Translations under genes and position numbers: made by a program
Source: Terriglobales bacterium
GTDB taxonomy: Bacteria; Acidobacteriota; Terriglobia; Terriglobales; Acidobacteriaceae
Assembly (NCBI GenBank): GCA_036008085.1
Contig: DASYOD010000041.1
Span: forward strand, 9,695 to 73,694
Reading direction: 5' to 3'
Length of the DNA stretch: 64,000 nucleotides
The notes under the pieces: model-generated
Database searches by the model: none
What the model saw: only the letters and a program-made list of their open reading frames with translations
Told to the model about the DNA's origin: nothing
Shown: positions 45,231 to 63,054 of the stretch, piece by piece
Layout: each line of letters opens with the position of its first letter
Numbering within the stretch: the first letter of the stretch is position 1

Positions 45231-45344
45231 GCTCTCTGAAAACGAATCGTTAAGCGGAGATCGCAGTCTGGTTGCGGGTTAAAACACCCACACTCCAGAC
45301 CGGCGATCTAGGTTGACACTTCGAAAGAAAGGCGCGTCCGAATC

Positions 45345-45680
45345 CTAGGCACTCTTCTTCAATTCGCGAACACTAGGTTGGTAGGATCCCGCAACGTTGC
45401 GAAAAGTGACGTTAAACCGATTCCGGACATTGATCTGAGTAATGGCCAGGGTCAGGTTCACAAGTTCCTTGTCGGTGAAATACTCGGGCCGCACTAGCGT
45501 GGACAGAGCCGGTGACACGAATCGCCGAAGGCCGCGTGACAGATGAAGTGTACAAGGGCGAAGGAGGGTTCGAGGCGGCGACTATGAGAGTTACTCAGTG
45601 CATATCCACGTCAATGATGCGTGGTCCGCGATTCGGCCATCAACCGATTCGCTCGTTTCACGCACGGTCATCAGGGAATG
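45345..45680 (-). pseudogene. decayed carboxymuconolactone decarboxylase (AhpD-like) family gene remnant
   Basis: My minus-strand translation ending at the TAG at 45345-45347 gives PEYFTDKELVNLTLAITQINVRNRFNVTFRNVAGSYQP. This matches the conserved C-terminus of CMD-family proteins. Upstream, the frame is closed by a stop at 45582-45584. Only degraded, frame-shifted similarity remains there (IIDVDMH-stop, SPLYTSSVTRPSAIRVT). Confidence 0.45.
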
Positions 45681-45733
45681 TGGCGCGAATAAGTAGTTCT
45701 TTAGTTTTGATGGGTGCTGGAACGTAAGGGGAG

Positions 45734-46828
45734 CTATTGCAAATCTGCTTTGTCGGGGTTGTAGAGGAACATAAATCGCAACGCGAGATATTGACCGCCG
45801 AACTCGTTGGGCAAGGGCGGAAATGGATTCGAAGCGGTGATGCCGCCCCAGGCGCCGCGATCGAGCGCTACGTCGCCGGAAGTCGAGACTAATCTCATCC
45901 CTGCGACTGTGCCGTTCTTGAGAATAGCGAACTCGATTGTGACTTTGCCTTTCTTCATTAATGGTGCCCGCGCCGATTCTGGAATCAGGTTGTACCAGTT
46001 GATCTTCACGTCGTGCAGCACGCGCTGCAAATAAGGCCCGAAATCCACGCCCATGGTGTCGGACAGGACTTCGAGCGGTCCCATCGCGGCCGTCGGTTTA
46101 CCACCCAAACCAAGACCGTAATTTCCTCCGTCGCCGCCGCCATAGCCACCACGGTTGGCAGCAGCCGCGCGAGCGGCTTGTTCGATAGCCGAGCCTGCGG
46201 ACTGAATCCCGCTGCCAAAAGCTGCTTGAGGAGTCAAAGCGGGCGGAGTCTGCATTTTCGCAACCTGCTGGGGAGGAGGCGGCGGAGGCGCTGATGGCTG
46301 AGGCGCAGGATTCTGACTGGCTCCAGACGCAGGAGGCGCAGGCTGGGGTTGCGGGGTTTGAGCAGCATTCGCACCGGGCCTGCCCGGCCGCGATGCGTCG
46401 AGAATTTTTTTCAACTCCTTCCGATCGATTTGCGGTGCATGCGATGTGGCGATGCGATCTTTGTCAGAAATGATATTTGTGTTGGGACGCTGGGTTACCT
46501 TCTGTTCGTCAGGAGGCAATTCCAGATAGGTAAGGTCTTTTTGCGATTGCGGACTCATCACCACTACAGCTCGCCTTGGCATAAATCCTGCCAGCTTCGG
46601 CGAATTGTATAGCAGCAGTACAACAATCAAGTGCACCACTACGGAAATCCAGAAAGCCTCGCGCCTGCGCGCATGCGCCAGTTCATCCTGAAGGTGTAAG
46701 AGTAAAGCAGGAGCCTCCACGATTTCCCGATACGCCGACTCCCAATAACGCGCATCGTACAAATCTCCGCCCTCGGAAGGTCGCGTTGATGGAGCCGGAT
46801 TTGTCGGCGGGATTTGCGTAGTCGACAT
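45734..46828 (-). CDS. TonB-family energy transducer
   Basis: 364 aa. One TM segment (FWISVVVHLIVVLLLY), a Pro-rich spacer (PQPQPAPP...PPPPPPQQ), and a C-terminal TonB_C-like block (GKVTIEFAILKNGTVAGMRLVSTSGDVALD). Confidence 0.75.
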   Translation of the reverse strand: MSTTQIPPTNPAPSTRPSEGGDLYDARYWESAYREIVEAPALLLHLQDELAHARRREAFWISVVVHLIVVLLLYNSPKLAGFMPRRAVVVMSPQSQKDLTYLELPPDEQKVTQRPNTNIISDKDRIATSHAPQIDRKELKKILDASRPGRPGANAAQTPQPQPAPPASGASQNPAPQPSAPPPPPPQQVAKMQTPPALTPQAAFGSGIQSAGSAIEQAARAAAANRGGYGGGDGGNYGLGLGGKPTAAMGPLEVLSDTMGVDFGPYLQRVLHDVKINWYNLIPESARAPLMKKGKVTIEFAILKNGTVAGMRLVSTSGDVALDRGAWGGITASNPFPPLPNEFGGQYLALRFMFLYNPDKADLQ

Positions 46829-47067
46829 CGAATGAACTACCTGCTGGTCGAGGGACGGGTGTCGAACATCAGTTGCAAGGACAGAAAATCCCCCACGTTT
46901 CCTGGGTGTTTCCAGTCTACTGCCTCGAGCTGCTGGCGCCTGCGGTCCAGTGTCTTATTCTCGCATCTTTCGCGCGAATCTGCGAAGGTTTGAAAGTGCC
47001 AGAACGGGAGATTTGAATCCAGATGGTCAATTGCAGTTTACAAAAATTTACATTTAGGGAATGTGGC

Positions 47068-48048
47068 CTAAGCGTGCAGCCGGTCGAGATCAATCTTTTC
47101 CCCGTGTACGCGAATGGCAGAGACGATGTCCAAAGCGCCAGCTAAGGCGCGGCGTCCGTCTTCTAAGGTAACTTCGGGCTCAGAACGTTGCTTCACGGAG
47201 TGGAGAAATGATTTCAGTTCCGCGTGTAAAGGCTCCTCATTCGTAGTCGGAAGTTTCGCCATTTGAATTTGCGGATTCACCGAGGGCACGCTGCTGGCGG
47301 TGTCCGCGCCGACCGTGAAGAGCAGAACATCCTGCCGTCCATAATCGAGAGATACATACTGCTTGGGTTGAAAGAAGCGCAGCTTACGCACACGCTCGGT
47401 CGAGACCCGGCTGGCAGTAAAGTTGGCGATGCATCCCGACTCGAATTCAAGTCGGACATTCGCGATGTCAACCTTGCCGGAAAGGATGGGCAAGCCGACT
47501 GCCCGCACTTCCTTGACCGGCGATTTCACAAACGAGAGCACAATGTCGAGATCGTGAATCATGAGGTCGAGCACGACATCAACGTCGAGAGACCGCGGGG
47601 TGAATACGCTGAGGCGATGAACTTCAAAAAACATGGGACGGGTAATCACGGGAACGGCGGCGCGAACGGCCGGGTTGAAGCGCTCCAGGTGACCGACCTG
47701 CACAATGCGGCCATGTTTCGCGGCAAGGTGCATTAGTTGGTCGGCTTCCGCCAGCGATGTAGCCACCGGCTTTTCGATCAGCACATCGATCCCAGCCTCC
47801 ATCAATTGCTGCGCGGCCGTGAGGTGATGGATGGTGGGCACAGCTACCGAGGCAGCCTGAACCTCGCTGTGGGTGGTAGTGAGCTGCTGGATCGAACCGA
47901 AACTGCGGCAACCAAACTCACGTGCCACTGCGTCCGCCCGGAGAGTGTCTGGGTCAACTACCCCAACCAGCCGTACTGGCGCGCCCTCGTTGGCAAGCTG
48001 ATGGTAAACGCGGGCGTGGTTGCGGCCGAACGTGCCCACACCAATCAC
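47068..48048 (-). CDS. Gfo/Idh/MocA family oxidoreductase
   Basis: 326 aa with Rossmann N-terminus VIGVGTFGRNHARVY and an EKP motif. The GTG at 48048 is the only classical start; an in-frame stop lies 11 codons upstream, so the N-terminus is short and uncertain. Confidence 0.75.
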   Translation of the reverse strand: MIGVGTFGRNHARVYHQLANEGAPVRLVGVVDPDTLRADAVAREFGCRSFGSIQQLTTTHSEVQAASVAVPTIHHLTAAQQLMEAGIDVLIEKPVATSLAEADQLMHLAAKHGRIVQVGHLERFNPAVRAAVPVITRPMFFEVHRLSVFTPRSLDVDVVLDLMIHDLDIVLSFVKSPVKEVRAVGLPILSGKVDIANVRLEFESGCIANFTASRVSTERVRKLRFFQPKQYVSLDYGRQDVLLFTVGADTASSVPSVNPQIQMAKLPTTNEEPLHAELKSFLHSVKQRSEPEVTLEDGRRALAGALDIVSAIRVHGEKIDLDRLHA

Positions 48049-48252
48049 GGCGACGTTAGTGAAGTTATCGGCTGCCAGTAGTCAGTTCCCGGTTGGACGA
48101 CGTCTTGATTTAATCACAAACTGTTCGCGAGGGTAGCATTTGGAAATGGGCTTATCGCTTTGCGTCCCATGCGAGAGCCATTCCTTCGAGTTCAGGGAGC
48201 TAGTCTAGAATCTTGCGTTATTGCAACGATCGCGGCGAGCGCTGGATAGAGA

Positions 48253-48372
48253 TCACATCGAGCTGATCCTGATGTAGCGCGCCGAGTCCTTCAGCGAAAC
48301 AAGAAATACATATCCCGCGAACAGCAATCCGGCGGTTCCCACTATGTTTCGAGCTACTTTGAGTGCACTCAT
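48253..48372 (-). CDS. candidate 39-aa single-TM micro-protein (not in ORF track)
   Basis: My translation: MSALKVARNIVGTAGLLFAGYVFLVSLKDSARYIRISSM. The ATG is preceded by GGAGGCTGACTTTTT (GGAGG at about -10). Confidence 0.4.
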   Translation of the reverse strand: MSALKVARNIVGTAGLLFAGYVFLVSLKDSARYIRISSM

Positions 48373-48800
48373 AAAAAGTCAGCCTCCAAGCCGATTTAAG
48401 TCCTCAAATTTGGATGCTGGCACTTTCGCAGCTGTTGGTTCCAGAAAACGAGTCTTTTACCGGGTATCGCGCGAATCGGTCTTTCGTATCAGCGCGTCCG
48501 GTCATTTTTCGATCGGCCATCTAAAGGCCGATCAAGCCTGGCCGGTACGTTCTGCGGGTTCGCGAGCTTCGTGACACTGAACCCCGCCAATGGCAGGAGA
48601 GTTAGTGAATAAGCGAAACCGAGCGTAGATTCTTTGTGCATTGGTGTCCGGGCTTGGCCGAAAAGCCCATAGCCAGCGCCCCGATCGCCCGCTATCTCCT
48701 AGAGAGGATTGCCTTTGACGTGAAAAGCGAAACGAAAGCTATGCGGCCGGCACCACTAACATGATGGTTTGCCCAATTGACGAAGTTCAAGGGTAGAGGT

Positions 48801-49409
48801 ATGCTTTGCGGCCAAGATGTTCCTAGTATGGGGTATGCAGTGAGTACATCGAAGCCAGTTACTGAGTTGTTAGTAAAGTGGAAAGGCGGAGATGCGCATG
48901 CCCTTCAGGCGTTAATGCCGCTGGTTTACGGGGAGCTTCGGCGTGTAGCCCATCGCCATCTGCAAGGCGAGCGCCCCAACCACACCTTGCGAAGCACCGA
49001 ACTGGTGCACGAAGCGTATCTTCGCCTGGTCGATCAGAAGCCATCTGAATTCGAGAGCCGTTCACATTTCCTTGCGGTGTTAGCGCTGTTGATGCGTGAG
49101 ATCCTCGTCGACTACGCCCGTCGGCGTCGCGCCGCCAAACGCGGCTATGGATGCAAAATTACACTGGATCCCGCTATGGCAGTCCCCGAAGAGCAGCATC
49201 TGGACGTGCTAGCCCTGGATGACGCCCTGAAGGAACTCGAGCGTTTCGATCCCCCGCAAGCGCGAGTTGTTGAATTGCGATTTTTCGGCGGCCTTTCCAT
49301 CGATGAGGTGGCTGATGTACTTAAAATCTCTCCTGCGACGGTGAAGCGCGAGTGGGCAACCGCACGAGCGTGGCTCTATCGTGAACTCAACCGGACCGCA
49401 GAGGCGTGA
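48801..49409 (+). CDS. ECF-type sigma-70 family factor (kinase-associated type)
   Basis: LLVKWKGGDAHALQALMPLVYGELRRVAHRHL...LVHEAYLRL (region 2) and LSIDEVADVLKISPATVKREW (region 4). I prefer the ATG at 48801 after GGGTAGAGG over the TTG at 48777. Confidence 0.8.
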   Translation: MLCGQDVPSMGYAVSTSKPVTELLVKWKGGDAHALQALMPLVYGELRRVAHRHLQGERPNHTLRSTELVHEAYLRLVDQKPSEFESRSHFLAVLALLMREILVDYARRRRAAKRGYGCKITLDPAMAVPEEQHLDVLALDDALKELERFDPPQARVVELRFFGGLSIDEVADVLKISPATVKREWATARAWLYRELNRTAEA

Positions 49410-49443
49410 CCGAAGAATGCTCAGAACATTGAGCATGGTGTAA

Positions 49444-52110
49444 ATGAACTGGCGGTGTTCGATGATTCGGGAGCATTGGGGATCTGTAAAAGAAAAGCTG
49501 CAAGCGGCGCTCGATCTCGAACCTGAGAAACGCCGTGCCTACCTGGATGAGGCGGCAGGTTCGGATCCAGAATTGCGCCGCGAACTGGAATCGCTGCTCG
49601 TTGCCCACGAAAAGGCTGGCACCGATTTCCTGAATACTCCGACGGCACCCGCGACTGCAATGGCGGAAACCACGAAGCGGTCTGAAATCTTTATTGGCAG
49701 ACGCATCGGGCCTTTTCAAATTATCAATCAAATTGGCGCGGGCGGAATGGGCGAAGTTTATCGCGCCTTCCGCATCGATGAGTACGAAAAAGAAGTTGCG
49801 ATAAAGGTCGTACGTGCCGGCCAGGAGTCAGGATTCTCAGTCAGCCGCTTCAAGAACGAGCGACAGATCCTGGCCAGGCTTGATCATCCCAACATCGCTC
49901 GGCTGTTAGACGGCGGTACCACCGACGACGGTCTGCCGTATTTCGTCATGGACTTTATCGAGGGAAAGCCGATTGACGAGTATTGTGTAAGCCATAAGCT
50001 TCCGACCGAAGATCGATTAAAGCTATTTTCGCAGGTGTGTTCTGCGGTGCAATATGCGCATCAGCGTCTTATCATTCATCGCGACATCAAACCCAGCAAC
50101 ATTGTTGTAACCTCCGACGGCACGCCCAAGCTGCTGGACTTCGGTATCGCAAAGATTTTGGACCCAGAGGCGCCTGCTGGCCAATTCGAACGCACGCTAA
50201 CTATATTTCGCGCCCTCACTCCCGGCTACGCCAGCCCTGAACAAGTCAAGGGAGAAACCATCACGACAGCGAGTGACGTTTATTCATTGGGCGTCGTGCT
50301 GTACGAACTGCTCACCGGGCGTCATCCCTATCGCAAACCCAATAGCACAGCCCAAGAAATGTCTCGCGCAGTGTGCGAAGTAGAACCAGAAAAACCCAGT
50401 ACGGCAGTTAGAAGGAGAACCGCAGATGAAATCGCTCGCGAACCGCGTTCGCTCGCTTTATCAGACGGCCGTGACAACTCTACAGAAAAGCTAAGCAAGA
50501 GATTACGCGGCGACATAGACAACATTGTTCTGATGGCGTTGCGCAAAGAGCCACAGCGACGCTACGCGTCGGTCGAACAATTTTCCGAGGATATCCGTCG
50601 TCATCTGGAGAATCTTCCTGTCCTGGCGCGCAAGGATACTGTCAGCTATCGCACCTCAAAATTTGTCAGCCGGCACAAGGCTGGAGTAGTTACCGCAATT
50701 TTGTTGACTCTGACTTTGCTGGGCGCATTGGCGATTACCCTTTGGGAAGCCCGCGTGGCACGGCAACAGGCCGCGGTTGCGCGAGCCCAGCAGTCCAGGG
50801 CAGAGCGTCGTTTCAATGACGTACGCAAATTGGCTAATTCCCTGATATTCGAGGTCCACGATTCGATTAGAAACCTCCCGGGGGCAACTCAAGCGAGAAA
50901 GCTCGTGGTCGGTCGAGCACTTGAATATCTGGATAGTTTGTCACGCGAAGCAAGCGGCGACCCTGCGCTGCAGAGCGAATTGGCGACCGCATATGACAGC
51001 GTGGGAGATGTGCTTGGCTCTACGGATAATCCGAACCTCGGTGATTTCGAAGGTGCCGCGGCAAGCTATGCCAAAGCGTTAACCATCTGGGAAGCGCTAG
51101 CCGCTGCAAACCCGAGCGACGTGAAGGTCCAGCTTGGTCTGGGGAGTGAGTATTTCAGAACAACGCAAGTGCTCGAAAATATTGGCGATTTCGCGAAAGC
51201 CCGCTCCACCATGGAACGAGCACAACCCCTCGTGCAAAGAATGATGACCGAGCAGAACGATCCCAGACTGCAATTTCAACTTGCTGGTCTTTATTACTAC
51301 ACGGCTGGGGCGCTTGAGAAGACCGGCGATTTCTCTGGTGCCTTGCAAAATTATCGGCAGGCCGCCGCTGTTCTCGAACCGATTGCAGCCCAGCCAGGGA
51401 GCAACATTTTTGGACGCGCCTATTTACCGGTAAATTACGACGGGATAGCAAGAATGCAGGCGGAAACCGGCCAGATCGATGAGGCGGTCACCATGGCATC
51501 CAATGCACTTCATATTTTAAAGACCTTGTCGGAAGCTAATCCTACCAATGCCACTTTTCGTGAGTATATGGCGGACGCATATGGGACCTCGGGCGACATT
51601 CTGCGAAAAAAGGGAGACTATGAAGCAGCGCTCGCGATGTATCGCCGAGACGAGGAGACATGCAAGGAGTTGAAGTCCGCTGACGCCAATAATCAGCAAT
51701 CGATTATAAATTTGGGGTTTAGTAAAGCGAATATCGGTGAGATTCTTATGAGACAAGGAAAAGTCTCTGCGGGCCTGCGCAGCATTCATGAGGCTATCGC
51801 CGTTTTCCGGACCGCGCCGGGTTTCAAGAATTTATGGATCGACAGTGGGTTAAGTGCGTCTTACGCCGATGTGGGGGCTGGCTACATAGCGCTGGCGGAG
51901 CGGGCCGTTTCTCGGACCGAGAGATTAGAGTATTGGCGTGAAGCAAGGTCCTGGTATCAAAAAGGCATGGATGTATGGGCAAACAATCCGAAATCTGGTG
52001 GACTGGATGCCTTTGGTCACAATCAACCTGCGCAAATCAATCAGGAAATTGCAAAATGCGATCTGCGTTTGGGAGCCCTAACAGGTGCGCGAACGCCGCC
52101 CAAGGAGTAG
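49444..52110 (+). CDS. transmembrane Ser/Thr protein kinase with extracytoplasmic TPR-like repeats
   Basis: 888 aa. Kinase motifs: GAGGMGEVYRA, VAIK, HRDIKPSNI, DFGIAK, SPEQ. The TM segment is VVTAILLTLTLLGALAITLW, followed by about 430 aa of TPR-like helices. Confidence 0.9.
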   Translation: MNWRCSMIREHWGSVKEKLQAALDLEPEKRRAYLDEAAGSDPELRRELESLLVAHEKAGTDFLNTPTAPATAMAETTKRSEIFIGRRIGPFQIINQIGAGGMGEVYRAFRIDEYEKEVAIKVVRAGQESGFSVSRFKNERQILARLDHPNIARLLDGGTTDDGLPYFVMDFIEGKPIDEYCVSHKLPTEDRLKLFSQVCSAVQYAHQRLIIHRDIKPSNIVVTSDGTPKLLDFGIAKILDPEAPAGQFERTLTIFRALTPGYASPEQVKGETITTASDVYSLGVVLYELLTGRHPYRKPNSTAQEMSRAVCEVEPEKPSTAVRRRTADEIAREPRSLALSDGRDNSTEKLSKRLRGDIDNIVLMALRKEPQRRYASVEQFSEDIRRHLENLPVLARKDTVSYRTSKFVSRHKAGVVTAILLTLTLLGALAITLWEARVARQQAAVARAQQSRAERRFNDVRKLANSLIFEVHDSIRNLPGATQARKLVVGRALEYLDSLSREASGDPALQSELATAYDSVGDVLGSTDNPNLGDFEGAAASYAKALTIWEALAAANPSDVKVQLGLGSEYFRTTQVLENIGDFAKARSTMERAQPLVQRMMTEQNDPRLQFQLAGLYYYTAGALEKTGDFSGALQNYRQAAAVLEPIAAQPGSNIFGRAYLPVNYDGIARMQAETGQIDEAVTMASNALHILKTLSEANPTNATFREYMADAYGTSGDILRKKGDYEAALAMYRRDEETCKELKSADANNQQSIINLGFSKANIGEILMRQGKVSAGLRSIHEAIAVFRTAPGFKNLWIDSGLSASYADVGAGYIALAERAVSRTERLEYWREARSWYQKGMDVWANNPKSGGLDAFGHNQPAQINQEIAKCDLRLGALTGARTPPKE

Positions 52111-52316
52111 AGCTGGGTAGCCTGACGTCTGTTTCCTTTGTGACTGCCGTTCTCGACCACAACGAGGTTAACTAGGGTCGCGAGAAACGTTGAAGCGACA
52201 ACTGGGCATTGGGCACGTTTTGCGGTGAAACGCTCCTTGAAATTGGCTTATCGCGTGGTCACGAATTCTGTAAAATACGCAATTGGATTCCATCTGGGTG
52301 ACGCCGCCGATCAATC

Positions 52317-53354
52317 ATGGCCGACAGTGCTACCATTCGCGATTCTCAGGTCCCGCCAACCATTTCAGAAATCCACGTCCTCTGGATAACCGCCGGTCTG
52401 GGTTGTGACGGCGACACGATTGCCATGACTGCCGCGATGCAGCCCAGTATTGAAGATGTTGTACTGGGCTCCATGCCATGGATTCCGAAAGTGCATCTTC
52501 ACAATCCCTTTCTCGCCCAGGAGAATGGTGAAGACTTTCTAAGGCATTTTCATCTCGCCGCCAATGCTGAATTGGCTCCTTTCATTCTGGTGATTGAAGG
52601 ATCCATTCCGAACGAGAACAATAAAGATGAAGGTTACTGGGCGTCTATGGGTACCGATCAGAAAAGCGGCCAACCCATAACTACGTGTGAGTGGATCGAC
52701 CGGCTCGCGCCCCGCGCCTGGGCAGTGGTGGCGGCAGGAACGTGTGCTACTTACGGTGGCATTCACGCGATGGAGGGAAATCCCACGGGATGCATGGGGC
52801 TTCCGGATTACCTGGGATGGCAGTGGAAATCGGCCGCGAACATCCCGATTGTGTGCGTGCCGGGATGTCCGGTACAGCCGGATAATTTCATGGAGACGCT
52901 GCTGTACCTTTTATATATGGCTGCGGGGCGCGCTCCCATGATTCCGCTGGATGCTGCGTTGCGCCCAACCTGGCTGTTCGGCGCCACGGTTCATGAGGGC
53001 TGCGATCGAGGCGGCTACTACGAGCAGGGTGAGTTTGCCGACGAATATGGATCGCCCCTCTGCATTGTGAAGTTGGGCTGCTGGGGTCCCGTAGTGCAGT
53101 GTAATGTGGGAAAACGTGGGTGGATGGCTGGAATTGGCGGTTGTCCCAACGTCGGTGGAATTTGCATTGGATGCACGATGCCGGGTTTTCCTGACAAGTT
53201 TATGCCGTTCATGGATCAGCCGCCGGGTTCGTTGCTCTCATCGAATGCAGTGATGACTTATGGCAGAGCCATTCACGCACTGCGCCGGTTCACGCAGGCG
53301 TCGTTGAATAAAGAGCCGAGTTGGCGGCGAAAAGGAACTGAGGCAAACGTGTAG
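52317..53354 (+). CDS. [NiFe]-hydrogenase small-subunit homolog (Fe-S subunit), no Tat signal, no adjacent large subunit
   Basis: 345 aa with motif series VLWITAGLGCDGDT, AAGTCATYGG, VPGCP, HEGCDR, CIVKLGCWGPVVQC, GGCPNVGGICIGCTMPGFP. This is the ligand pattern for proximal, distal and medial clusters of group 1/2 small subunits. Confidence 0.8.
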   Translation: MADSATIRDSQVPPTISEIHVLWITAGLGCDGDTIAMTAAMQPSIEDVVLGSMPWIPKVHLHNPFLAQENGEDFLRHFHLAANAELAPFILVIEGSIPNENNKDEGYWASMGTDQKSGQPITTCEWIDRLAPRAWAVVAAGTCATYGGIHAMEGNPTGCMGLPDYLGWQWKSAANIPIVCVPGCPVQPDNFMETLLYLLYMAAGRAPMIPLDAALRPTWLFGATVHEGCDRGGYYEQGEFADEYGSPLCIVKLGCWGPVVQCNVGKRGWMAGIGGCPNVGGICIGCTMPGFPDKFMPFMDQPPGSLLSSNAVMTYGRAIHALRRFTQASLNKEPSWRRKGTEANV

Positions 53355-53379
53355 TTGAGGTCGATTTTTTGTGAGGTGC

Positions 53380-54993
53380 ATGGACATGGTCTTCGGGGGC
53401 CAAAGCGCAACAGAACGAACTGCCCACCAGGACTTGAACTTGAGTGAAGTCGTGAGTGTAAGCCAGGCAGAAACTCTTCTTGCGGATCTCGCCGCGATGT
53501 TCCTTACCGATCCCTCCCAGCCGGTTACGTCGGGTCCCGAAGGAAGCGGGGACGAGTCCGAAGAGCAACTGCCTAACGTTGACGCTATCTACCGGGCTTT
53601 GGTCGAGCAAATTCCTGCAGTTGTTTTCATGGCCCATTTGGACCGAGGCATCGGAGAAGCTTATGTGAGCCCACAGATTGAAGCCAGCCTGGGTTTTTCG
53701 CAGGAAGAATGGCTGGAAGATCCGATTCGCTGGTATCAGCAAATCCACCCCGAGGACAAACAACGATGGAGCGTCGAGGCAGCGCAGATGTTTCTCTCGG
53801 GCACGCCGCTGCGGTCGGCGTATCGCGTGATAGCGCGAGATGGCAAAGTGGTGTGGTTTCATTGCGAAGCCAAGATGATTCGGCGCAAGAACGGCCGGCC
53901 ATGGTTCATCCACGGCATTGCGTTTGACATCACTGAGCTGAAGCGGACGGAAGAAGCGCTGCAGGAAGAACGCAACGTAGTTTCGGCGATACTGCACACG
54001 GTCGGCGCTTTGGTGGTGGTGCTGGATCCGCAAGGCCGCATCGTCCGTTTCAACCGGGCTTGTGAGCACGTCTCTGGTTATTCCTTCGAAGAGGTCAAGC
54101 ATAAATATTTCTGGGATTTGTGCGTGGTTCCGGAAGAAGCACAACGGTTCAAGATTCTTATTGAACAATTGCGTGTCGAGCATGCGTCCAAGGACTATGA
54201 AACTTCGTGGGTAGCGCGGGATGGCTCGCAGCGGCTGATCGCCTGGTCAAGCACGATACTCCCCGGTGATGATGGAGCGCCAGCCTACATCATCGCCACT
54301 GGCCTTGATATCACAGAGCGCAAGCGTCTGGAGACGGCAATTCTGGAAATTGGCGCGGAAGAACAACGTCGTATTGGTCGTGATCTGCATGATGGTCTTG
54401 GGCAACAACTGACTGGGATTGCGTTTCTGAGCAAGGTTCAAGAGCAGAAACTGGCAGAAAAAAGCCTTCCGGAAGCGGCCGAAGCAGCCCGGATCGTGGC
54501 GATGGTTAATGAGGCCATTCAGAAGACTAGAGAACTGGCGCATGGCGTTTCACCCGTGATATCAGACGCTCATGGTCTAATGTCGGCCTTGAAGCGATGG
54601 GCGGCTGAGGTCGAAGACTTATTCAACATTTCTTGCTGCTTACGCATTGATGAACCTGTTCTTATTTATGACGCCAATATGTCTACCCATCTGTATCGGA
54701 TTGCGCAGGAAGCCGTGAATAACGCCATCAAGCACGGGCGGGCCAAAAATATAACAATCAGCCTCTCTGCCAGTAAGGAATCCGGTACCTTGAGAATAGA
54801 AAACGACGGTTTGGACCTAGCGGAACTTCCCAGGAATGGCGCAGGCATGGGGATGCAAATCATGAACTATCGAGCGCGAATGATTGGCGGATCGCTTAAA
54901 GTCGAGTGCGGCGCCAGAGTCCGCGGGCTTGCCATCACATGTCAATTCCCATTGACAAGGGGCGAGCAAAGGAAGAGAAAGGTTGGCTCATGA
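53380..54993 (+). CDS. soluble sensor histidine kinase, PAS-PAS-HisKA_3-HATPase_c
   Basis: Two PAS-like modules (...WYQQIHPEDK...; ...VLDPQGRIVRFNRACEHVSGYS...), H-box EEQRRIGRDLHDGLGQ, N-box EAVNNAIKHG. No TM segment. Starts 25 nt after the hydrogenase-like gene. Confidence 0.85.
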   Translation: MDMVFGGQSATERTAHQDLNLSEVVSVSQAETLLADLAAMFLTDPSQPVTSGPEGSGDESEEQLPNVDAIYRALVEQIPAVVFMAHLDRGIGEAYVSPQIEASLGFSQEEWLEDPIRWYQQIHPEDKQRWSVEAAQMFLSGTPLRSAYRVIARDGKVVWFHCEAKMIRRKNGRPWFIHGIAFDITELKRTEEALQEERNVVSAILHTVGALVVVLDPQGRIVRFNRACEHVSGYSFEEVKHKYFWDLCVVPEEAQRFKILIEQLRVEHASKDYETSWVARDGSQRLIAWSSTILPGDDGAPAYIIATGLDITERKRLETAILEIGAEEQRRIGRDLHDGLGQQLTGIAFLSKVQEQKLAEKSLPEAAEAARIVAMVNEAIQKTRELAHGVSPVISDAHGLMSALKRWAAEVEDLFNISCCLRIDEPVLIYDANMSTHLYRIAQEAVNNAIKHGRAKNITISLSASKESGTLRIENDGLDLAELPRNGAGMGMQIMNYRARMIGGSLKVECGARVRGLAITCQFPLTRGEQRKRKVGS

Positions 54994-55679
54994 TTCCTAA
55001 ACAAATCAACAACAATTTCCCCGCCAAAAAGAAAACAGTGTTCGTGGTTGATGATCATCCTATTGTGCGCCAGGGCTTGACGCTCCTCATTAATCGGGAA
55101 AGCGATCTCGTGGTGTGTGGTGAAGCCGAAGAAATGCAATGTGCGCTGTCGACGATTCACAGCACCAGACCGGACATCCTTATTGTAGACATCTCGCTCA
55201 ATGGTCCGGATGGGTTAGAGCTGTTAAAAAACATCCGAATAACGTCTCCACGTCTTCCCGTCCTGATTCTTTCCATGCACGATGAATCGATCTATGCGGA
55301 ACGGGCCTTGCGGGCCGGGGCAAACGGTTACATCATGAAGCAGGAAGCCACAGAGAAGGTGCTGGTGGCGCTGCGTCGCATTTTGAGCGGTGAAATTTAT
55401 GTGAGCGATCGAATTGCGAACAGCATGTTGCGACACTACGTTCGCGGCGCCAGCCCTTCAGAACATACGTCAGTGTCCGATCTTACGGACCGCGAGCTGG
55501 AAGTTTTTCGGCTAATTGGCGAAGGTCAGGGAACACGTCAGATTGCCGAGGCCCTGCACCTTAGCGTGAAAACGGTCGAGTCCTACCAGGCGCATATTAA
55601 AGAGAAACTCTCTCTGCGAAGTGCGCGCGAACTGGTTCAGCACGCGGTGGAATGGAATGTGCGCGAAAAAACGGCGTGA
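54990..55679 (+). CDS. NarL/FixJ-type response regulator (REC + LuxR HTH)
   Basis: KTVFVVDDHPIVRQGL...DILIVDISL and the HTH LTDRELEVFRLIGEGQGTRQIAEALHLSVKTVESY. The ATG overlaps the kinase stop (ATGA). Confidence 0.9.
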   Translation: MIPKQINNNFPAKKKTVFVVDDHPIVRQGLTLLINRESDLVVCGEAEEMQCALSTIHSTRPDILIVDISLNGPDGLELLKNIRITSPRLPVLILSMHDESIYAERALRAGANGYIMKQEATEKVLVALRRILSGEIYVSDRIANSMLRHYVRGASPSEHTSVSDLTDRELEVFRLIGEGQGTRQIAEALHLSVKTVESYQAHIKEKLSLRSARELVQHAVEWNVREKTA

Positions 55680-55723
55680 ACTGTGGTTGGGTCAATAAAG
55701 TTTTCCGGCCAAGTGATTGAGGT

Positions 55724-57391
55724 CTATCGATGGTAATTTTTCACGAACTCCGGAACTGAATCAGCCACGCGCACTTCTCGCTTCGTAGAATCAGGCAGCG
55801 TGACCAGAACCTTCCTCGGGTAATATTCGTCGCTGGGCCAATCGTAGCTGTATACAAAAACTGCTCCACTGCCAAACTGCTGGCGTATAAGAAATCGTTG
55901 CCGGAACCAATTGCGGAGCAGCAGGCGCCTGTTCTCATCAGTGATCTGAGTCATGAGAACTCCGTCGTACTCGTAATGCCTCTCCCGGCCCGAAGACGAG
56001 ACCGCAGACTTCAGCATTCCATCGGCGTTGTACTCGTATTGCGCCCAGTGACCCGCGTCATCCTCTGCCCGCTTGATGCGCGAAGAATCGTCGTACGTGA
56101 ACCTGATCCAGTGTTCATGCGGAGTCCTGATTTCTTGTAAGTTCCGCCGCGAATCGCGCTTCAATTCCAGGCGGTTGCCGTTGGCGTCGCGCATCTCATA
56201 AGGCGCGCCTTGCGCCAGACTGCTGGCGTTATAAGACTCAGGAAACAGCATTTCTGAACCGTCCGCGAGCCTCGTTGTCCATCCATGGCCGTCCCATCGC
56301 GTCGTTGCTTTGTAGAAACAACTGGAGGTTTCTGAATGCTGGAACACCGAGTCCGCATAACCCGTGCCTTTGGAAATTCGATCAAAATACAAGAAGTCGC
56401 CGTCTTCGAGCACGATCATTTGATACGTGTACGGATTTCGCGTACCGATCGGAGCAATGTCATAAGGATGATTGCAATTGCGTCCAAATGCGTGCACCGG
56501 ATTTTGATCTACCCACTCGTTCGACGTATAGGTGCGAGTAAGCGGAACCTTGATGACATCGTCAAGAAAGAGATCGGTCTCGCGCAGCACGAAGTTTCCG
56601 TAGCGCAGGTCAGCTTCGAACCGGTCCACCGGATCGCTGTGCGTCGTAGGCATGGCACAACTGCCAAGCTGAGGAAGCACGCCGCCAGTGCCCACTTGTG
56701 CAAAGACACAGGGGAAATCTCCGTCAAACCGCGCTGCCGCAGCAACCGTATTTCTATATTCCGGCACCGCTGCTGATTGGAGATGAACCTCCACATAAGC
56801 ATTGGGATCGTATTCGACCACTCGCCCGGATACGAGATCTACCTTCTCGTGTAGCTTCTCAAAATCTATCTCGAAGGTAGTGTAAGTCCACGGGCCTGTT
56901 CCCCTGCCGCCAACGACGTGCGCTATCCCATCACCGTTGGGACCGTGCACAGGAATCGTCAGATGCGCTTCTTTCCATCCGGTTTCGTCCTGTTTGATTT
57001 CTCCTTGCAGTCCGGCTGCGATTGCAATCGGCATCCCGATCAGTCGAACGATGTCTGCATTGGCGGCCATCCGCGCCACCGCATCGGTGGCAACGGCTGC
57101 ACGCTGTGTCGCCCGCGATCTTTGGAGGCCAATCCCCACACCGACGCTAACGAGCAGGCACGCCAATAGCAGAGCGAACAGAACGGTCTTGCGGTGGGAG
57201 TAAGGTACCTGTTTGGAATGGCCGCAAAGCGGACAGACTCCACCTTTCTTTACCGCATCCGCAAGAGAGGTCTCAAGAATTTGGTCAACGGTCGTGTTGA
57301 CCTGCTCTTCTGAGGGATCGACTTCAACTCCGCATCCACGGCAATTCATAAGCGTCCCCGGTGGATCCTTGCGCAAGCGTGGGCGGCTCAC
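55724..57391 (-). CDS. zinc-ribbon / TM / Coa1-like / short RHS (YD-repeat) protein
   Basis: 555 aa. N-terminal CRGCG...CPLCGH, then the TM segment VLFALLLACLLVSVGVGIGL. A Coa1-like block follows (IGMPIAIAAGLQGEIKQDETGWKEAHLTIPVHGPNGDG). The RHS-core entry motif is VDRFEADLRYGNFVLRETDLFLDDVIKVPLTRTYTS, followed by a few YD repeats (YEYNADGML...HYEYDG). No C-terminal toxin domain. Confidence 0.7.
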   Translation of the reverse strand: MSRPRLRKDPPGTLMNCRGCGVEVDPSEEQVNTTVDQILETSLADAVKKGGVCPLCGHSKQVPYSHRKTVLFALLLACLLVSVGVGIGLQRSRATQRAAVATDAVARMAANADIVRLIGMPIAIAAGLQGEIKQDETGWKEAHLTIPVHGPNGDGIAHVVGGRGTGPWTYTTFEIDFEKLHEKVDLVSGRVVEYDPNAYVEVHLQSAAVPEYRNTVAAAARFDGDFPCVFAQVGTGGVLPQLGSCAMPTTHSDPVDRFEADLRYGNFVLRETDLFLDDVIKVPLTRTYTSNEWVDQNPVHAFGRNCNHPYDIAPIGTRNPYTYQMIVLEDGDFLYFDRISKGTGYADSVFQHSETSSCFYKATTRWDGHGWTTRLADGSEMLFPESYNASSLAQGAPYEMRDANGNRLELKRDSRRNLQEIRTPHEHWIRFTYDDSSRIKRAEDDAGHWAQYEYNADGMLKSAVSSSGRERHYEYDGVLMTQITDENRRLLLRNWFRQRFLIRQQFGSGAVFVYSYDWPSDEYYPRKVLVTLPDSTKREVRVADSVPEFVKNYHR

Positions 57392-57650
57392 AACTTCACG
57401 ACCGACACATCATAAGCCAGCCCCGCCCAGCATTCCACGTTTCTTTGCGTATGTCCCTGCTGACGGTTCTGAGCCACGGGGTTAACGGCGTCGCCCAATG
57501 AGGGATCCGTTTAGTATTAATCCCCGAAACTTCTCCTGGAGGGTGCCTGGCCTGTTCCGTTTTCCGGACAAGACACACACGAGGGGATCACCTGACGGAA
57601 CTGACTGTAGAATGCGCTCGCTACTCGGAGACCCCACAAGTCTGGTTGTC

Positions 57651-57854
57651 ATGTCCTGTATAAGCTGCAGATCGATCAATCAAGTGCAGTTAGGTTCTGA
57701 GATTTTCATCCATTCCCACGGCGTGAAAGGTGTTGACAGGCCTGGCGTGATGGCATTTCCGACGCTGGTTGTCTGTTTGGATTGCGGCTTTTCGGAATTC
57801 GCTATTCCACAAGCCGAGTTGCATCTGCTAAGGAAACAGGAAGCGGCCGCGTAA
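57651..57854 (+). CDS. 67-aa zinc-ribbon-like hypothetical protein
   Basis: The ATG at 57651 inside track ORF 57498..57854 gives MSCISCRS...VVCLDCGFSEF, i.e. two CxxC pairs. Confidence 0.4.
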   Translation: MSCISCRSINQVQLGSEIFIHSHGVKGVDRPGVMAFPTLVVCLDCGFSEFAIPQAELHLLRKQEAAA

Positions 57855-57967
57855 CCGCGATCCTAGCCGAAATGCACACGACATGGATGAACGTTCCACC
57901 CATCCTCTTCGATGCAATTACCGCGCTCCGCTCGCCAACTGGACCCGTTCGCACACGGCAAGGGTTT

Positions 57968-58702
57968 TCAGGCGGCAGCTCTCACGGCTTTCTCTGCGCT
58001 CTTCGGCGGGCACTTAGCGTCGTAGGTCACTTGCATCTCCCTGAGCTTGAGCACTCCGTAAAACACGATAAGCGCCATGGCTACGACCAGAAGAGCGGCG
58101 AATCTCTTTTCCCAACCGTAGGCGCCTTCACGGTTAGCGACATAAGAGGCAATGATCAGGCAGAGAATACCGATGTTGATACTCCAGTTCACGCGCTTCG
58201 GCACGATGTAGTCCAAGGTGCCGAAACCGGCGAGCTGATAGAGCATGAACGGCAGGATCGCTACCATGGGTAGCAACTCGGAGGCGCCCAGACTGATGTC
58301 GAGAGCGCCGGGTGCCAGCGCATGCAGCAACCTGCTATGCGCCAGTTGATGGAACAACGCTGGGATCGCACACAACAAGGGCACAACGGCGAGCAATTCG
58401 AGCACCAACGCTCCGCTCCAGGTGCCGACCTCGGAGGAATGATCAGCGCCTGCGCCCGATGATTGCGTGCCGATAAATAGACCCCCGACAATGGCTGCAG
58501 CGCTGGACAGCATCAGCAACTCTACCGTGATGCCAAAGGCCTCTGGTTCGCCCGCCTTGAGTAACAGCATGGCCAGAAAACCGGGTGTGTAGAACAATAC
58601 CCGCACCAATTTCGCCCAAACCCGAGCGTCGCGTTCTGGCGGCAAGATCGGGAGCGCACGTCCGTCGATTCCTATGGTCAGCCTGGCTTTATCCTTCGAC
58701 AT
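57968..58702 (-). CDS. polytopic membrane protein, hypothetical
   Basis: 244 aa with about 6 hydrophobic helices. I recognise no family. Confidence 0.55.
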   Translation of the reverse strand: MSKDKARLTIGIDGRALPILPPERDARVWAKLVRVLFYTPGFLAMLLLKAGEPEAFGITVELLMLSSAAAIVGGLFIGTQSSGAGADHSSEVGTWSGALVLELLAVVPLLCAIPALFHQLAHSRLLHALAPGALDISLGASELLPMVAILPFMLYQLAGFGTLDYIVPKRVNWSINIGILCLIIASYVANREGAYGWEKRFAALLVVAMALIVFYGVLKLREMQVTYDAKCPPKSAEKAVRAAA

Positions 58703-58902
58703 TCCGTTGTCCTCCAGATACAGCTTGCATTTGGCGTCTGGGTGCTTTTAACAGCGGAGAAACATTGCGCAGCAAAAGCCAACAATTTCGCGTGCGCCAG
58801 CTAGTGCATCACGAGTATCTAGTAGTGCCAACTGTCACTTATTACGAACATCGCACTCCTAAAAAGCATCGCCCGACACCCAGATCAATACTCGACTACG
58901 GC

Positions 58903-59403
58903 TCATTTGCCATCGGTGACGATGAGTTCCGCATGCGCGGTTCCACACATTCCGTAGGTCGCTCCTGACTGGCAAGCTCCCGCGGAATACTTAAAGCATC
59001 CCGGCCGTTTTGCCAAGACTGAGACTGAGCGATCGGAACCGCCGATGATGGCGCCCGCTGGTTCAAACGGAGATGCAGGGCCGACATCGACAACGAAGCC
59101 GTTGTCCTTGCCGCTGCTGTTCCACTTAATCGTGGTGCCGACCTTCACGCAGAAAAGCGAATTACCCTTAGCGTTCGGGATGCTGGGAGTGGAGGATGCT
59201 GAATCCGCCGTCCGTTTTACATCCACGCTGCAAGGACTGGAAGAGGATCCGCATGTGTTGGCACTCGAACACAGCTGCGCCGGATTTGGTTCGGAACAAA
59301 CATACTTGCTGTCTTTCGACTCGGCATTTGAGTTACCAAGAAACAGCAACAACATCGACATTAGCGAAATACACCTAACTGCGAAGCACCGGCAGAATTG
59401 CAT
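58903..59403 (-). CDS. secreted Cys-rich hypothetical protein
   Basis: The ATG at 59403 gives signal-like MQFCRCFAVRCISLMSMLLLFLGNSNA. The mature part has about 10 Cys, and its C-terminal half looks beta-rich. Confidence 0.5.
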   Translation of the reverse strand: MQFCRCFAVRCISLMSMLLLFLGNSNAESKDSKYVCSEPNPAQLCSSANTCGSSSSPCSVDVKRTADSASSTPSIPNAKGNSLFCVKVGTTIKWNSSGKDNGFVVDVGPASPFEPAGAIIGGSDRSVSVLAKRPGCFKYSAGACQSGATYGMCGTAHAELIVTDGK

Positions 59404-59502
59404 AATGCACCTCGGGATTCGATCTTCAACGCAACCGGCCAATTAAGAGTCGGACATCCTTCGATCAGAACCTTTTAAGAGCCGTGAACGTGGTCCTGCT
59501 CA

Positions 59503-60105
59503 CTAGTTAACGCCAGGCGTTCCCGCCCAATCGAGCACGTCAACCAGTTTCCAAGGGTTCTGATTCAGGTCCCACTGCAGTTGCCCTTGTTTGTCGAGGA
59601 CAAGCTGGGCCTCGGGATACAAGGCTCCTGTGCTCTTGCTCTTGTCCTGGTCGTTTATCTCGAGTATGCCGGCGGTGAGGTTGAACGATTGAGACTGAGT
59701 GTCAAAGAACGCTTCACCGAACCTGATCTGGCGATTGGTCACAAAGACGATTTTTCTTCCCGTCGGCGTGGGAATCATCTTGATATAGGAGCAGTCATTG
59801 CCGAGTGTGCCAGTGATCTCGACGTGGCCTACCGCCTTCATCCGCTGTAGAGCATTTACGAGTCCCTGGTTCTGACCCTTTTCATAGGATTGAACGAGTG
59901 TCTGTTTGTCGGCAGGAGTCGAGAACTCATAAATATTCAAGGTCACGCCGATATTCTGACCCATTTGGGTGCCGGTACCGAACGCCGTGGCCTCAATCGT
60001 TTCAGTCTTTTCTCTCGCCATACCCGGAAGGGACACTGTCATCACCAAGCCCAACAGAAGCATGGCACCAATAACTACCTTGGGGACCTTTCCTTCTTCA
60101 TGCAT
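59503..60105 (-). CDS. secreted hypothetical protein
   Basis: 200 aa. ATG preceded by GGAGG. Signal peptide VVIGAMLLLGLVMTVSLPGMA. Confidence 0.6.
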   Translation of the reverse strand: MHEEGKVPKVVIGAMLLLGLVMTVSLPGMAREKTETIEATAFGTGTQMGQNIGVTLNIYEFSTPADKQTLVQSYEKGQNQGLVNALQRMKAVGHVEITGTLGNDCSYIKMIPTPTGRKIVFVTNRQIRFGEAFFDTQSQSFNLTAGILEINDQDKSKSTGALYPEAQLVLDKQGQLQWDLNQNPWKLVDVLDWAGTPGVN

Positions 60106-60305
60106 AAATTCCTCCGATCTACAAATTCGCTAAGCCGCCACAGCTGATGGTTTCGGCGTGTGAAGATTGATCTCCTCGCTGATGTGTGAACGAGAATTCG
60201 GCCTGTCTCCCACGGCTTAGGCGAATTCTGACCTTGTCAATCTGGGAATGTAACTGTCAAAAGTGACGGTTCGGGGCAAGGCAGGGTTCTACAGAATGCT
60301 TTTTT

Positions 60306-61469
60306 CTATTTCTGGAAAGCGGCCGGAGTTTGCATGCTGGCCCACACTTCCGCCGCCGTCACCCGCCGCGAAATTGCGGGGTGCGATTGAAAAAACCATT
60401 CAACCCATCGCGATGGAGACCGCTCTGCCAGATTCTGGTCTGCCAATTTGTTCATGGAAGAAATAAACGGCCCGACACTGGGGATGGACTGAAATGCATA
60501 GCGGTCAGCCTGCCGTTCGTTGTAACGAGAGTAGGCATTGAGAGCTGGTAACAAGAGGAAAGACAGGACGGTCGAAACCAGCACCAACAGCGGCAGATTG
60601 GCAAAGTCAGAGACGGTGACAAACATGTGGGTTCGGTCCACCGCGTAGTGAAGAACCCAGTTTGCCGCCCAAAATCCGACCAGCGTAATCCCTGCCTGAA
60701 CCGCAATGCTTTTGAGAATATGCCGGTGCACGTGATGTCCGAGCTCATGCGCCAGCACGGCTTCAATCTCGTCAGCTGAATAATTTTCGAGCAAAGTATC
60801 CGCGAGAATGATCCGCCGCGTGTTACCGAGTCCAGTCAAGGCCGCGTTGGCTTTCTTGCTTTTCTCCGAAAGATTCCACTTATAGACGCCGCGCACTCGC
60901 GTTCCGGCTCGTTCGCTGAGTCCGAGTAGACGGGTTTTCAGGTCCTCGTTGTCGAGAGGTTCAAACTTATAAAAAATGGGAAACAAAACTACAGGAGCAA
61001 GCTGCGCCATCAAGACGAACAAACCTAAGAATGCAGCCCACGCGATTACCCACCAATGCTGCGGGAATTCGCGAATTATGAAGTAAAGTATTTCGACTAC
61101 AATCGACGCCAACACCACGCCGACTAGAAAACCTTTGGTTTCGTCCCAAACCCAAGCGCGCAATTTTTGGTTGGACAGATTGTAGCGACGTTCCAATCGA
61201 AACCCGTAGTAGTCGAGGCCCAGGCCAAGCAGTTTTCCAATCAGCATGAGCATCACGACATAAAGAAAAACTGCTAGCGTGTAGTGTTCATAACTGCCGT
61301 GCAAGGCAAGATCGCGCAGCGTTCCATTCCATCCCATGCCTAGAAGAACGACAAGAAGAAGAAGGCCGAGGAGAAAATCCGCAATACCGAGCCATCTCCG
61401 AACACGGTTATACCGACGCGCTTCGGGCGAGTCGGTTGGAGCAGGCGTGGTGGCAGTTGCATTGCTCAT
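60306..61469 (-). CDS. M48 family (Ste24/HtpX-like) membrane zinc metalloprotease
   Basis: 387 aa with multiple TM helices, HELGHHVH (HExxH) and a downstream E in NERQADRYA. Confidence 0.8.
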   Translation of the reverse strand: MSNATATTPAPTDSPEARRYNRVRRWLGIADFLLGLLLLVVLLGMGWNGTLRDLALHGSYEHYTLAVFLYVVMLMLIGKLLGLGLDYYGFRLERRYNLSNQKLRAWVWDETKGFLVGVVLASIVVEILYFIIREFPQHWWVIAWAAFLGLFVLMAQLAPVVLFPIFYKFEPLDNEDLKTRLLGLSERAGTRVRGVYKWNLSEKSKKANAALTGLGNTRRIILADTLLENYSADEIEAVLAHELGHHVHRHILKSIAVQAGITLVGFWAANWVLHYAVDRTHMFVTVSDFANLPLLVLVSTVLSFLLLPALNAYSRYNERQADRYAFQSIPSVGPFISSMNKLADQNLAERSPSRWVEWFFQSHPAISRRVTAAEVWASMQTPAAFQK

Positions 61470-61548
61470 CGGTAATTATGATTATCTTACCCGGCGGTTT
61501 TAATTGCGAGTCACGTAAGTGCGGTGAACGGCAGGTTAAGTGCTTGCC

Positions 61549-62967: not shown

Positions 62968-62974
62968 GAGAACC

Positions 62975-63053
62975 GGTCGTTGGTCATTCGTCCTTGACCG
63001 TTGGCAAGATCGTTTTAGTTTTGCCAGCTATCAGCGACGAACGACCGACGACC
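62975..63053 (-). other. long nested inverted repeat filling the manC-pgm intergenic gap
   Basis: GGTCGTTGGTCATTCGTC (62975-62992) is complementary to GACGAACGACCGACGACC (63036-63053) at 16/18. An inner TGGCAA/TTGCCA pair lies between them. The structure abuts the upstream stop and ends 8 nt before the downstream ATG. Confidence 0.5.
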
Positions 63054-63054
63054 T

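Follow-up and report, generated by a model that had tools for sequence, protein, structure and literature searches.

A group 1h hydrogenase small-subunit paralogue in a putative redox-sensing two-component module of Acidobacteriota

The window analysed here, a 64,000-nucleotide (64-kb) stretch of contig DASYOD010000041.1 from a Terriglobales bacterium (assembly GCA_036008085.1), carries on its forward strand a gene for a homologue of [NiFe]-hydrogenase small subunits, hereafter SSU', followed by genes for a PAS-domain histidine kinase and a NarL-type response regulator. The three genes form one operon that encodes a cytoplasmic sensory module, and SSU' stands out, as judged from its sequence, as an ancient paralogue of the group 1h hydrogenase small subunit HhyS that keeps the predicted ligands of all three iron-sulfur (Fe-S) clusters. 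As a whole, the trio is best explained as an Fe-S/H2-redox sensor that controls expression of the group 1h hydrogenase genes (hhy), a reading held with somewhat better than even confidence. The locus comprises the following features:

52262..52285, forward strand: promoter-like element GAATTCTGTAAAATACGCAATTGG, upstream of SSU' and conserved in relatives
52317-53354, forward strand: SSU' gene, 345 aa (open reading frame list and Pfam)
53380..54993, forward strand: soluble sensor histidine kinase with PAS_3 (PAS-A), PAS, HisKA_3 and HATPase_c domains (Pfam/NCBIfam)
53467..53493, forward strand: motif A..(L)L..LA near the kinase N-terminus, residues 33-41 in numbering from the GTG start
53590..53940, forward strand: PAS-A domain, kinase residues ~74-190
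54990..55679, forward strand: NarL/FixJ-type response regulator with REC and GerE/LuxR helix-turn-helix domains, 229 aa (Pfam/NCBIfam)

The 345-aa protein contains Oxidored_q6 (PF01058, residues 30-198, 79.9 bits) and NiFe_hyd_SSU_C (PF14720, residues 221-298, 78.9 bits) domains, which at a gathering cut-off of 27 places it in the [NiFe]-hydrogenase small subunit superfamily. The NCBIfam small-subunit models all score far under their cut-offs, because these models were built for other hydrogenase groups. The SSU' stop codon (TAG, 53352-54) is followed 25 nt later by the kinase ATG at 53380, which is preceded by GAGG; a GTG at 53371 provides an alternative kinase start. The kinase is free of hydrophobic segments and carries the H-box RDLHDGLGQ, and its stop codon overlaps the start of the regulator in an ATGA at 54990-54993. 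The regulator, whose length agrees with the gene call of the Joint Genome Institute (JGI), has the receiver aspartate context IVDISL, and with Pfam domains above their cut-offs the two proteins constitute a NarL/FixJ-type two-component pair. This arrangement, with the spacing, the PAS-PAS-HisKA_3 architecture and the ATGA overlap, is the one given in a preliminary description of the locus made from the window alone.

A search of solved structures aligned SSU' end to end with HofK (PDB 5AA5_A, E=5.6e-176, 73% identity over 325 columns), far ahead of a [NiFeSe] small subunit as the second-best structure (1e-42) and of the group 2a Huc small subunits (~1e-28). 5AA5 is the actinobacterial-type (group 1h) hydrogenase of C. 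necator/R. eutropha, of which HofK is the small subunit. The alignment predicts C30/D33/C143/C184 as ligands of the proximal cluster, C262/C276/C283/C286 of the medial cluster and H226/C229/C249/C255 of the distal cluster, thereby bearing out the full Fe-S ligand series that had been read from the sequence. The first ligand motif, C30-D-G-D33, replaces the usual CxxC by CxxD, and the three-Cys-plus-one-Asp ligand set that the preliminary description ascribed to group 1h is correct: the proximal [4Fe4S] cluster of 5AA5 is held by three cysteine residues together with a single aspartate (review PMC11023054). The predicted ligands reproduce the complete group 1h pattern of a 3Cys+1Asp proximal, a four-Cys medial and a His+3Cys distal cluster. 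As likewise stated earlier, no twin-arginine RRxF motif occurs in the N-terminus of the window's SSU', whose residue 8 aligns with HofK residue 10. SSU' thereby resembles the structural subunit HofK/HhyS in overall identity, ligand pattern and the lack of a Tat signal; it differs in its C-terminal tail, which reads RKGTEANV in place of the conserved 15-aa structural tail, and in its gene neighbourhood, where a histidine kinase rather than the large-subunit gene hhyL comes next. Several NCBI records of metagenome-assembled genomes (MAGs) call group 1h small subunits 'hydrogenase expression protein HypE' (P0089, P0142, P0159, P0223), which looks like a systematic mis-annotation.

To place SSU' among its relatives, one genome per species was scanned with the protein, and the best 80 of 598 matches were kept; these 80 loci come almost all from Acidobacteriota MAGs (Acidobacteriaceae, Terriglobales, Bryobacterales, Korobacteraceae, Acidiferrales, Blastocatellia). 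In a neighbour-joining tree of a 136-sequence alignment, SSU' split from the structural copies and HofK in 189 of 200 bootstraps, with the window sequence inside the SSU' clade. Mean identity is 83.7% within SSU', 86.7% within the structural copies and 72.7% between the two clades, while HofK is on average 78% identical to the structural copies and 70.5% to SSU'. Twelve differences are fixed between the clades (SSU' residue first: T34S, I35V, A36S, W55G, I90V, N102I, C180N, G232A, Q261N, G265P, Q301E, S329T), including an extra cysteine, Cys180, in SSU', and several of these positions adjoin cluster ligands. The ligands themselves are retained at all 12 positions in 67 of 67 SSU' sequences, with Asp33 to Glu, found in nine mostly Blastocatellia-type sequences, as the sole change. 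Conservation is shared well beyond the ligands: 162 of 326 columns are at least 95% conserved with an identical residue in both clades, and across the same genome pairs from 53 genomes with both copies, SSU' divergence is only 1.28 times that of HhyS. The tails, by comparison, are 14-15 aa long and conserved (HPRAELTTGYHPRSY-like) in structural copies and variable, basic and of a median 8 aa in SSU'. By these sequence comparisons, SSU' is a distinct paralogue clade and not a stray subunit.

Some members of the wider family depart from the common form. Five loci, mostly from Blastocatellia MAGs (L054, L059, L064, L068 and L065, the last an unclassified Acidobacteriota), have CDGE for CDGD in SSU', a regulator only 31-33% identical to that of the window and an hhyS promoter without the GGGAnTCCC palindrome described below. 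A Phycisphaerales MAG (L066:9920-12590, CAVWFQ010000009.1) combines SSU'-like residues (T34, I35, Q261, G265) and a truncated tail with structural-like ones (G55, N180, A232); its small-subunit gene is followed by a gene for a PAS-A-like kinase (56% identity), with a divergent REC-GGDEF-EAL gene on the upstream side and no large subunit within 10 kb. The locus could be an intermediate form of the module outside Acidobacteriota, or an independent one. In one MAG, JBOGLC01, SSU' apparently occurs twice, once at the end of a contig and once, on another contig, in a full trio-hhySL locus (L024 and L072).

What sets SSU' apart most clearly is its constant partner. SSU' is followed by a same-strand protein with the PAS-A domain within 1.5 kb in 77 of 77 genome loci with enough downstream sequence, compared with one of 72 structural-type copies (L066). 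Metagenome contigs were then scanned with PAS-A alone, which removes the ascertainment bias of a search that starts from SSU', and SSU' lay directly upstream in 70 of 73 testable loci. The three exceptions (L110, L111, L165) have a PAS-A kinase and a regulator without SSU' directly upstream, and L111 still has hhyS after the regulator. Across more than 140 loci the SSU'-kinase adjacency is kept, and the order of small subunit, kinase and regulator is conserved in Acidobacteriota with operon-like spacing in more than 100 loci (median gaps of 25 nt between SSU' and kinase and of -4 nt between kinase and regulator; 4-nt overlaps of SSU' with the kinase gene are also frequent). As far as gene order can tell, the gene directly after SSU' always codes for a signalling protein with PAS-A at its start, and the earlier proposal that the small subunit is tied to the two-component system rather than to a large subunit gains support from both order and linkage.

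Within the kinase, PAS-A is the most conserved part. Column conservation reaches 0.81-0.90 in PAS-A, compared to 0.4-0.75 elsewhere in the protein, and the motif A..(L)L..LA is at least 90% conserved in 71 kinases in an otherwise variable N-terminus. The same motif is also found in kinases with unrelated output domains, and it is a candidate docking helix. PAS-A is common to at least four output architectures: the majority, including the window, combine PAS-HisKA_3-HATPase with REC-GerE, while others have PAS-A-HisKA_3 only (L054), PAS-A-HisKA-HATPase (L062), a hybrid kinase with REC (L064) or PAS-A-GAF-PAS-HisKA-HATPase followed by REC-HD-GYP (L042, L045). This pattern points to SSU' as the input protein of the kinase. 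In the last two loci (L042:9743-14714 and L045:9890-14734), SSU' stands with the kinase and a REC-HD-GYP protein (HD_5) with no hhySL within 10 kb, which suggests that in some Acidobacteriaceae the SSU' sensor feeds cyclic di-GMP (c-di-GMP) turnover and not transcription. At L064:5332-12462, two PAS-A kinases flank one SSU', a HisKA_3 kinase with its regulator upstream and a hybrid HisKA-REC kinase downstream, ahead of hhySL; the genome is labelled Heliomicrobium, probably through a binning error.

A system of this kind has been reported, contrary to the statement in the preliminary description that none was described. Giguere et al. [quoted passage not shown] In KBS 83, transcripts of the homologue are present in exponential phase and 13-fold more abundant in stationary phase, hhyL is induced ~125-fold (~3.5-fold in E. 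aggregans), and hhyS transcripts are undetectable in exponential phase while those of hhyL are present (PMC8027828). Cultured carriers have one large-subunit copy per strain (Eichorst et al. 2018). The published unit and that of the window share the three genes, namely a small-subunit homologue ~70% identical to hhyS, a kinase and a regulator, as well as the occurrence in Acidobacteriota, and the window protein belongs to the SSU' clade whose copies lie ~3.6 kb upstream of hhyS in many relatives. They differ in that the trios of the window and of its close relative L012 are not upstream of hhySL; furthermore, the published account consists of one paragraph and reverse-transcription quantitative PCR, with nothing on mechanism, PAS-A or an operator, and no later functional work on the unit was found in the literature. 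The trio in the window is accordingly rated a detached variant of a known, mechanistically unexplored module.

The detachment is local. Long contigs with close homologues carry, after the trio, a complete group 1h operon of a second small subunit, a large subunit (PF00374), NifU, DUF5947, DUF6084, a hypothetical gene, HycI and HypC, and a tblastn classification found the order trio-hhyS-hhyL-nifU-DUF5947-DUF6084-hycI on one strand in ~60 of the best 80 loci. In most Acidobacteriota the trio lies 0.2-0.5 kb upstream of the hhyS-hhyL operon; a large subunit follows at 0.2-5 kb in nearly all genome loci and in 40 of 46 metagenome loci with enough sequence. The exact window SSU' protein occurs on four JGI soil-metagenome contigs with identical neighbours, and on these contigs, in the window and in L012 (96% identical), hhySL is not nearby. 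Around the trio of the window, hhyS and hhyL are missing from 52 kb of upstream and 8.3 kb of downstream sequence. Neither an RxCGxC nor a DPCxxC large-subunit motif occurs in a real ORF in any of the six frames of the 64 kb, and tblastn with the relatives' HhyL, NifU-like, DUF5947, DUF6084 and HycI proteins found no match there. The earlier claim that the window has neither a large subunit nor hyp genes thus stands for the large subunit; for hypA-F no dedicated queries were run. The further claim that the Ni-Fe subunit had been removed from the system applies only to the window's lineage, given that most relatives have hhyS-hhyL 0.2-5 kb downstream, and the 'orphan' label is true only for the 64-kb window and its closest relatives. 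The gene orders indicate that the orphan state is a local rearrangement that separated the trio from hhy in this lineage.

Among the relatives, the distance between the trio and hhyS varies. The nearest coupled relative, L092 (SSU' 91% and regulator 93% identical), has hhyS 1.5 kb past the regulator, and the regulator-hhyS spacers form a series of 0.3, 1.2-1.5, 2.1, 4.3 and 5 kb, then absence of hhyS. L017 carries a 5-kb insert between regulator and hhyS, and in L058 the hhy operon is divergent to the trio. Where synteny is broken, for instance in the window, L012, L017, L058, L092, L144 and L172, the break falls between the regulator and hhyS and not between SSU' and the kinase. In L172 (1878-5735) the 4.3-kb spacer holds four genes, including one for a 581-aa protein with Trans_reg_C and TPR domains, which marks the regulator-hhyS junction as an insertion hotspot. 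The nearest relatives of the structural HhyS of L092, on contigs of P0121 and P0122 from other samples, are still trio-linked.

These breakpoints bear on the possibility that SSU' has no signalling role and is an alternative catalytic small subunit, forming with HhyL a second Hhy isoenzyme with another acceptor or potential. The retention of all ligands, the high conservation and the single hhyL per genome would all suit such a protein, and T34/I35/A36, C180 and Q261/G265, which adjoin ligands, could tune cluster potentials. It would, however, leave unexplained why every observed breakpoint leaves SSU' beside the kinase rather than beside hhyL, why one PAS domain accompanies it across different kinase families, and why its gene so often overlaps the kinase gene by 4 nt; as such, this explanation is improbable.

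From 44000 to 64000 the window is collinear with L012 (~91% nucleotide identity), including a convergent RHS/DUF6531 gene, and a comparison of the two gives ratios of nonsynonymous to synonymous substitution rates (dN/dS) of 0.052 (SSU'), 0.069 (kinase) and 0.054 (regulator), at dS of 0.29-0.44. These low values indicate that the detached module is functional. Were SSU' what is left of a hydrogenase operon, displaced or decaying, with an unrelated two-component system next to it by chance, the lack of large-subunit and accessory genes in the window would be accounted for. Such a remnant would not be expected to have an intact ORF with all ligands, a dN/dS of 0.05 at a dS of 0.29, an adjacency kept in so many loci and a clade of its own with fixed signature residues; the remnant or pseudogene reading was therefore rejected on dN/dS and conservation, and is effectively refuted.

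A candidate target of the regulator emerges from the coupled loci. The intergenic regions between regulator and hhyS contain a 17-bp palindrome, aTcgGGGA-N-TCCCCGAT, at a median of 233 nt before hhyS, in 72 of 91 non-redundant loci compared to at most five in shuffles. This palindrome, in short ATCGGGGA-N-TCCCCGAT, is present in 87 of 110 hhyS promoters with a window-type regulator upstream, including eight of the nine with 1-5 kb insertions, and it stays ~190-240 nt upstream of hhyS despite these inserts after the regulator. It is found in none of 12 hhyS promoters without a window-type regulator upstream (Fisher p=6e-8, not corrected for phylogeny), a set that comprises trio-less loci, Blastocatellia loci with another regulator family, L066 and L058 with its divergent trio. 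Upstream of SSU' itself the palindrome occurs in none of 122 loci, and in the window no palindrome of the hhyS type (motif ATCGGGGANTCCCCGAT) was found with up to three mismatches; a lone GGGATTCCC at 36929 is at chance level and has no flanking arms. Taken together, this distribution suggests the palindrome as a candidate operator for the NarL-type regulator.

The trio itself appears to have a promoter of its own. An element upstream of SSU' (GAATTcTGTAgAATACGCAgTTGG, consensus gAatt.tGTAgAATACGCag..gg) lies at a median of 74 nt before the SSU' start, with the core TAnAATAC in 46 of 122 non-redundant loci and the best 9-mer in 27 loci compared to at most six in shuffles; it is likely the -10 region of the operon promoter. 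A generic sigma-70 and terminator scan of 51900-56000 stayed at shuffle background.

The available data are compatible with a model in which SSU' would dock onto the kinase at PAS-A and the N-terminal helix, kinase activity would be set by how reduced or oxidised the Fe-S chain of SSU' is, and the phosphorylated NarL-type regulator would control transcription of the hhy operon via the palindrome ~230 nt upstream of hhyS. For the window's lineage, the model predicts hhySL at another place in the genome, together with its palindrome. As to how the clusters would become reduced, the favoured though unproven sub-mechanism, which we place just short of an even chance, is that SSU' makes use of the only HhyL of the cell, giving a sensing hydrogenase of low abundance in which electrons from H2 oxidation reduce the SSU' clusters. 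Sharing of HhyL is consistent with the high conservation common to SSU' and HhyS and with the expression of hhyL without hhyS in KBS 83.

SSU' might instead be a stand-alone Fe-S redox sensor whose clusters report cytoplasmic redox state, O2 or reactive oxygen species, or Fe-S status to PAS-A without a large subunit, close to the 'Fe-S wire protein' of the preliminary description. The trios of the window and L012 are under strong purifying selection, with hhyL absent from 52 kb on the upstream and 8 kb on the downstream side; in L042, L045, L062 and L066, SSU'-type genes accompany other kinases and hhySL is not found within 10 kb; SSU' no longer has the conserved C-terminal tail of the structural copies; and carbon starvation, rather than H2, induces the hydrogenase, as would suit an energy or redox signal. 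However, with half of all columns fixed as in HhyS (the 162 of 326) and a rate only 1.28 times higher, the constraint on SSU' exceeds what three clusters by themselves would be expected to need, and this excess suggests that the large-subunit interface has been kept. Moreover, most carriers keep the module beside hhySL, cultured carriers have a single hhyL, and no carrier genome has been shown to lack it. The stand-alone sensor thus persists as a rival that is not favoured and that we consider unlikely.

Several points weigh against the trio being a sensor that controls hhy. The contacts of SSU' with the kinase and with HhyL and the binding of the regulator to the palindrome are all deduced from co-occurrence. 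The loci, almost all of them from Acidobacteriota and in many cases from MAGs, are not independent of one another phylogenetically, and the counts therefore overstate the number of independent events. PAS-A matches, among solved structures, the uncharacterised structural-genomics PAS domains 3H9W and 3MR0 and, weakly, FixL and HIF, with no recognisable cofactor signature. About 20% of linked loci, and L058, lack the palindrome, which could belong to another regulator that co-varies with the clade. The hhySL genes of the window's genome were not located, and among the best 80 of 598 matches the closest genome, L012, showed only the trio locus. Atmospheric H2 is nearly constant, so that the gain from sensing it is not obvious. 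Finally, the E. aggregans homologue is not detectably transcribed, yet hhyL is induced 3.5-fold in this species (PMC8027828).

The likeness to the H2-sensing regulatory hydrogenases of group 2b, HoxBC-HoxJ-HoxA of Cupriavidus necator and HupUV-HupT-HupR of Rhodobacter/Bradyrhizobium, was aptly drawn in the preliminary description, and an HhyL-sharing SSU' would be a functional analogue of HoxBC-HoxJ with an independent origin inside group 1h. The differences are nonetheless considerable. The window module has no dedicated large subunit: no HoxC/HupV-type protein lies beside SSU' in the window or in any relative, where structural HhyL is the only large subunit nearby. SSU' is a paralogue within group 1h and not a group 2 protein. 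HoxA and HupR are of the NtrC type, whereas the window has a HisKA_3 kinase and a NarL/GerE-type regulator. The C-terminus of SSU' is shortened, whereas in the regulatory hydrogenase a C-terminal extension of HoxB contacts HoxJ. With the diguanylate-cyclase-linked putative sensory hydrogenases of group 2c (HydDB), the module shares a hydrogenase component that feeds second-messenger signalling, as in the coupling of SSU' to REC-HD-GYP in L042 and L045; group 2c enzymes differ in having their own large subunit and belonging to group 2, and the module in the window has a transcription-factor output.

A further reading, which we consider less likely than not, is that SSU' and PAS-A constitute a previously uncharacterised sensor cassette that would have arisen by duplication of the small subunit alone of the atmospheric-H2 hydrogenase and in which SSU' would either time-share HhyL with the enzyme it regulates or, in window-type lineages, signal without a large subunit. 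Time-sharing of HhyL would represent a third independent origin of H2-sensing hydrogenases and the first without a catalytic subunit of its own, while signalling without a large subunit would mean that a three-cluster Fe-S protein serves histidine kinases, HD-GYP proteins and hybrid kinases as their dedicated redox input. Either would amount to a new way of turning an enzyme subunit into a sensor of redox state or of a gas. Much of the uptake of atmospheric H2 by soil is due to group 1h hydrogenases, Acidobacteria are major carriers, and mycobacteria control their group 1h hydrogenase by other routes. The trio is the obvious candidate regulator of hydrogenase synthesis in Acidobacteria, and the analysis provides a putative sensor pair (SSU'/PAS-A), a candidate operator and natural cases of a module detached from hhy or connected instead to outputs of the c-di-GMP type.

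The genes that flank the trio in the window are of other kinds. Directly upstream, at 48777-52110 on the forward strand, lie genes for an extracytoplasmic function sigma factor (Sigma70_ECF) and, after it, for a TPR-repeat Ser/Thr kinase of 888 aa; this block also adjoins the trio in L092, where it is inverted. Downstream, at 55724-57391 on the reverse strand and convergent with the regulator, lies the DUF6531/RHS-repeat gene, whose product has an N-terminal zinc-ribbon-like CxxC...CxxC motif; it sits where relatives carry hhyS and is kept in L012.

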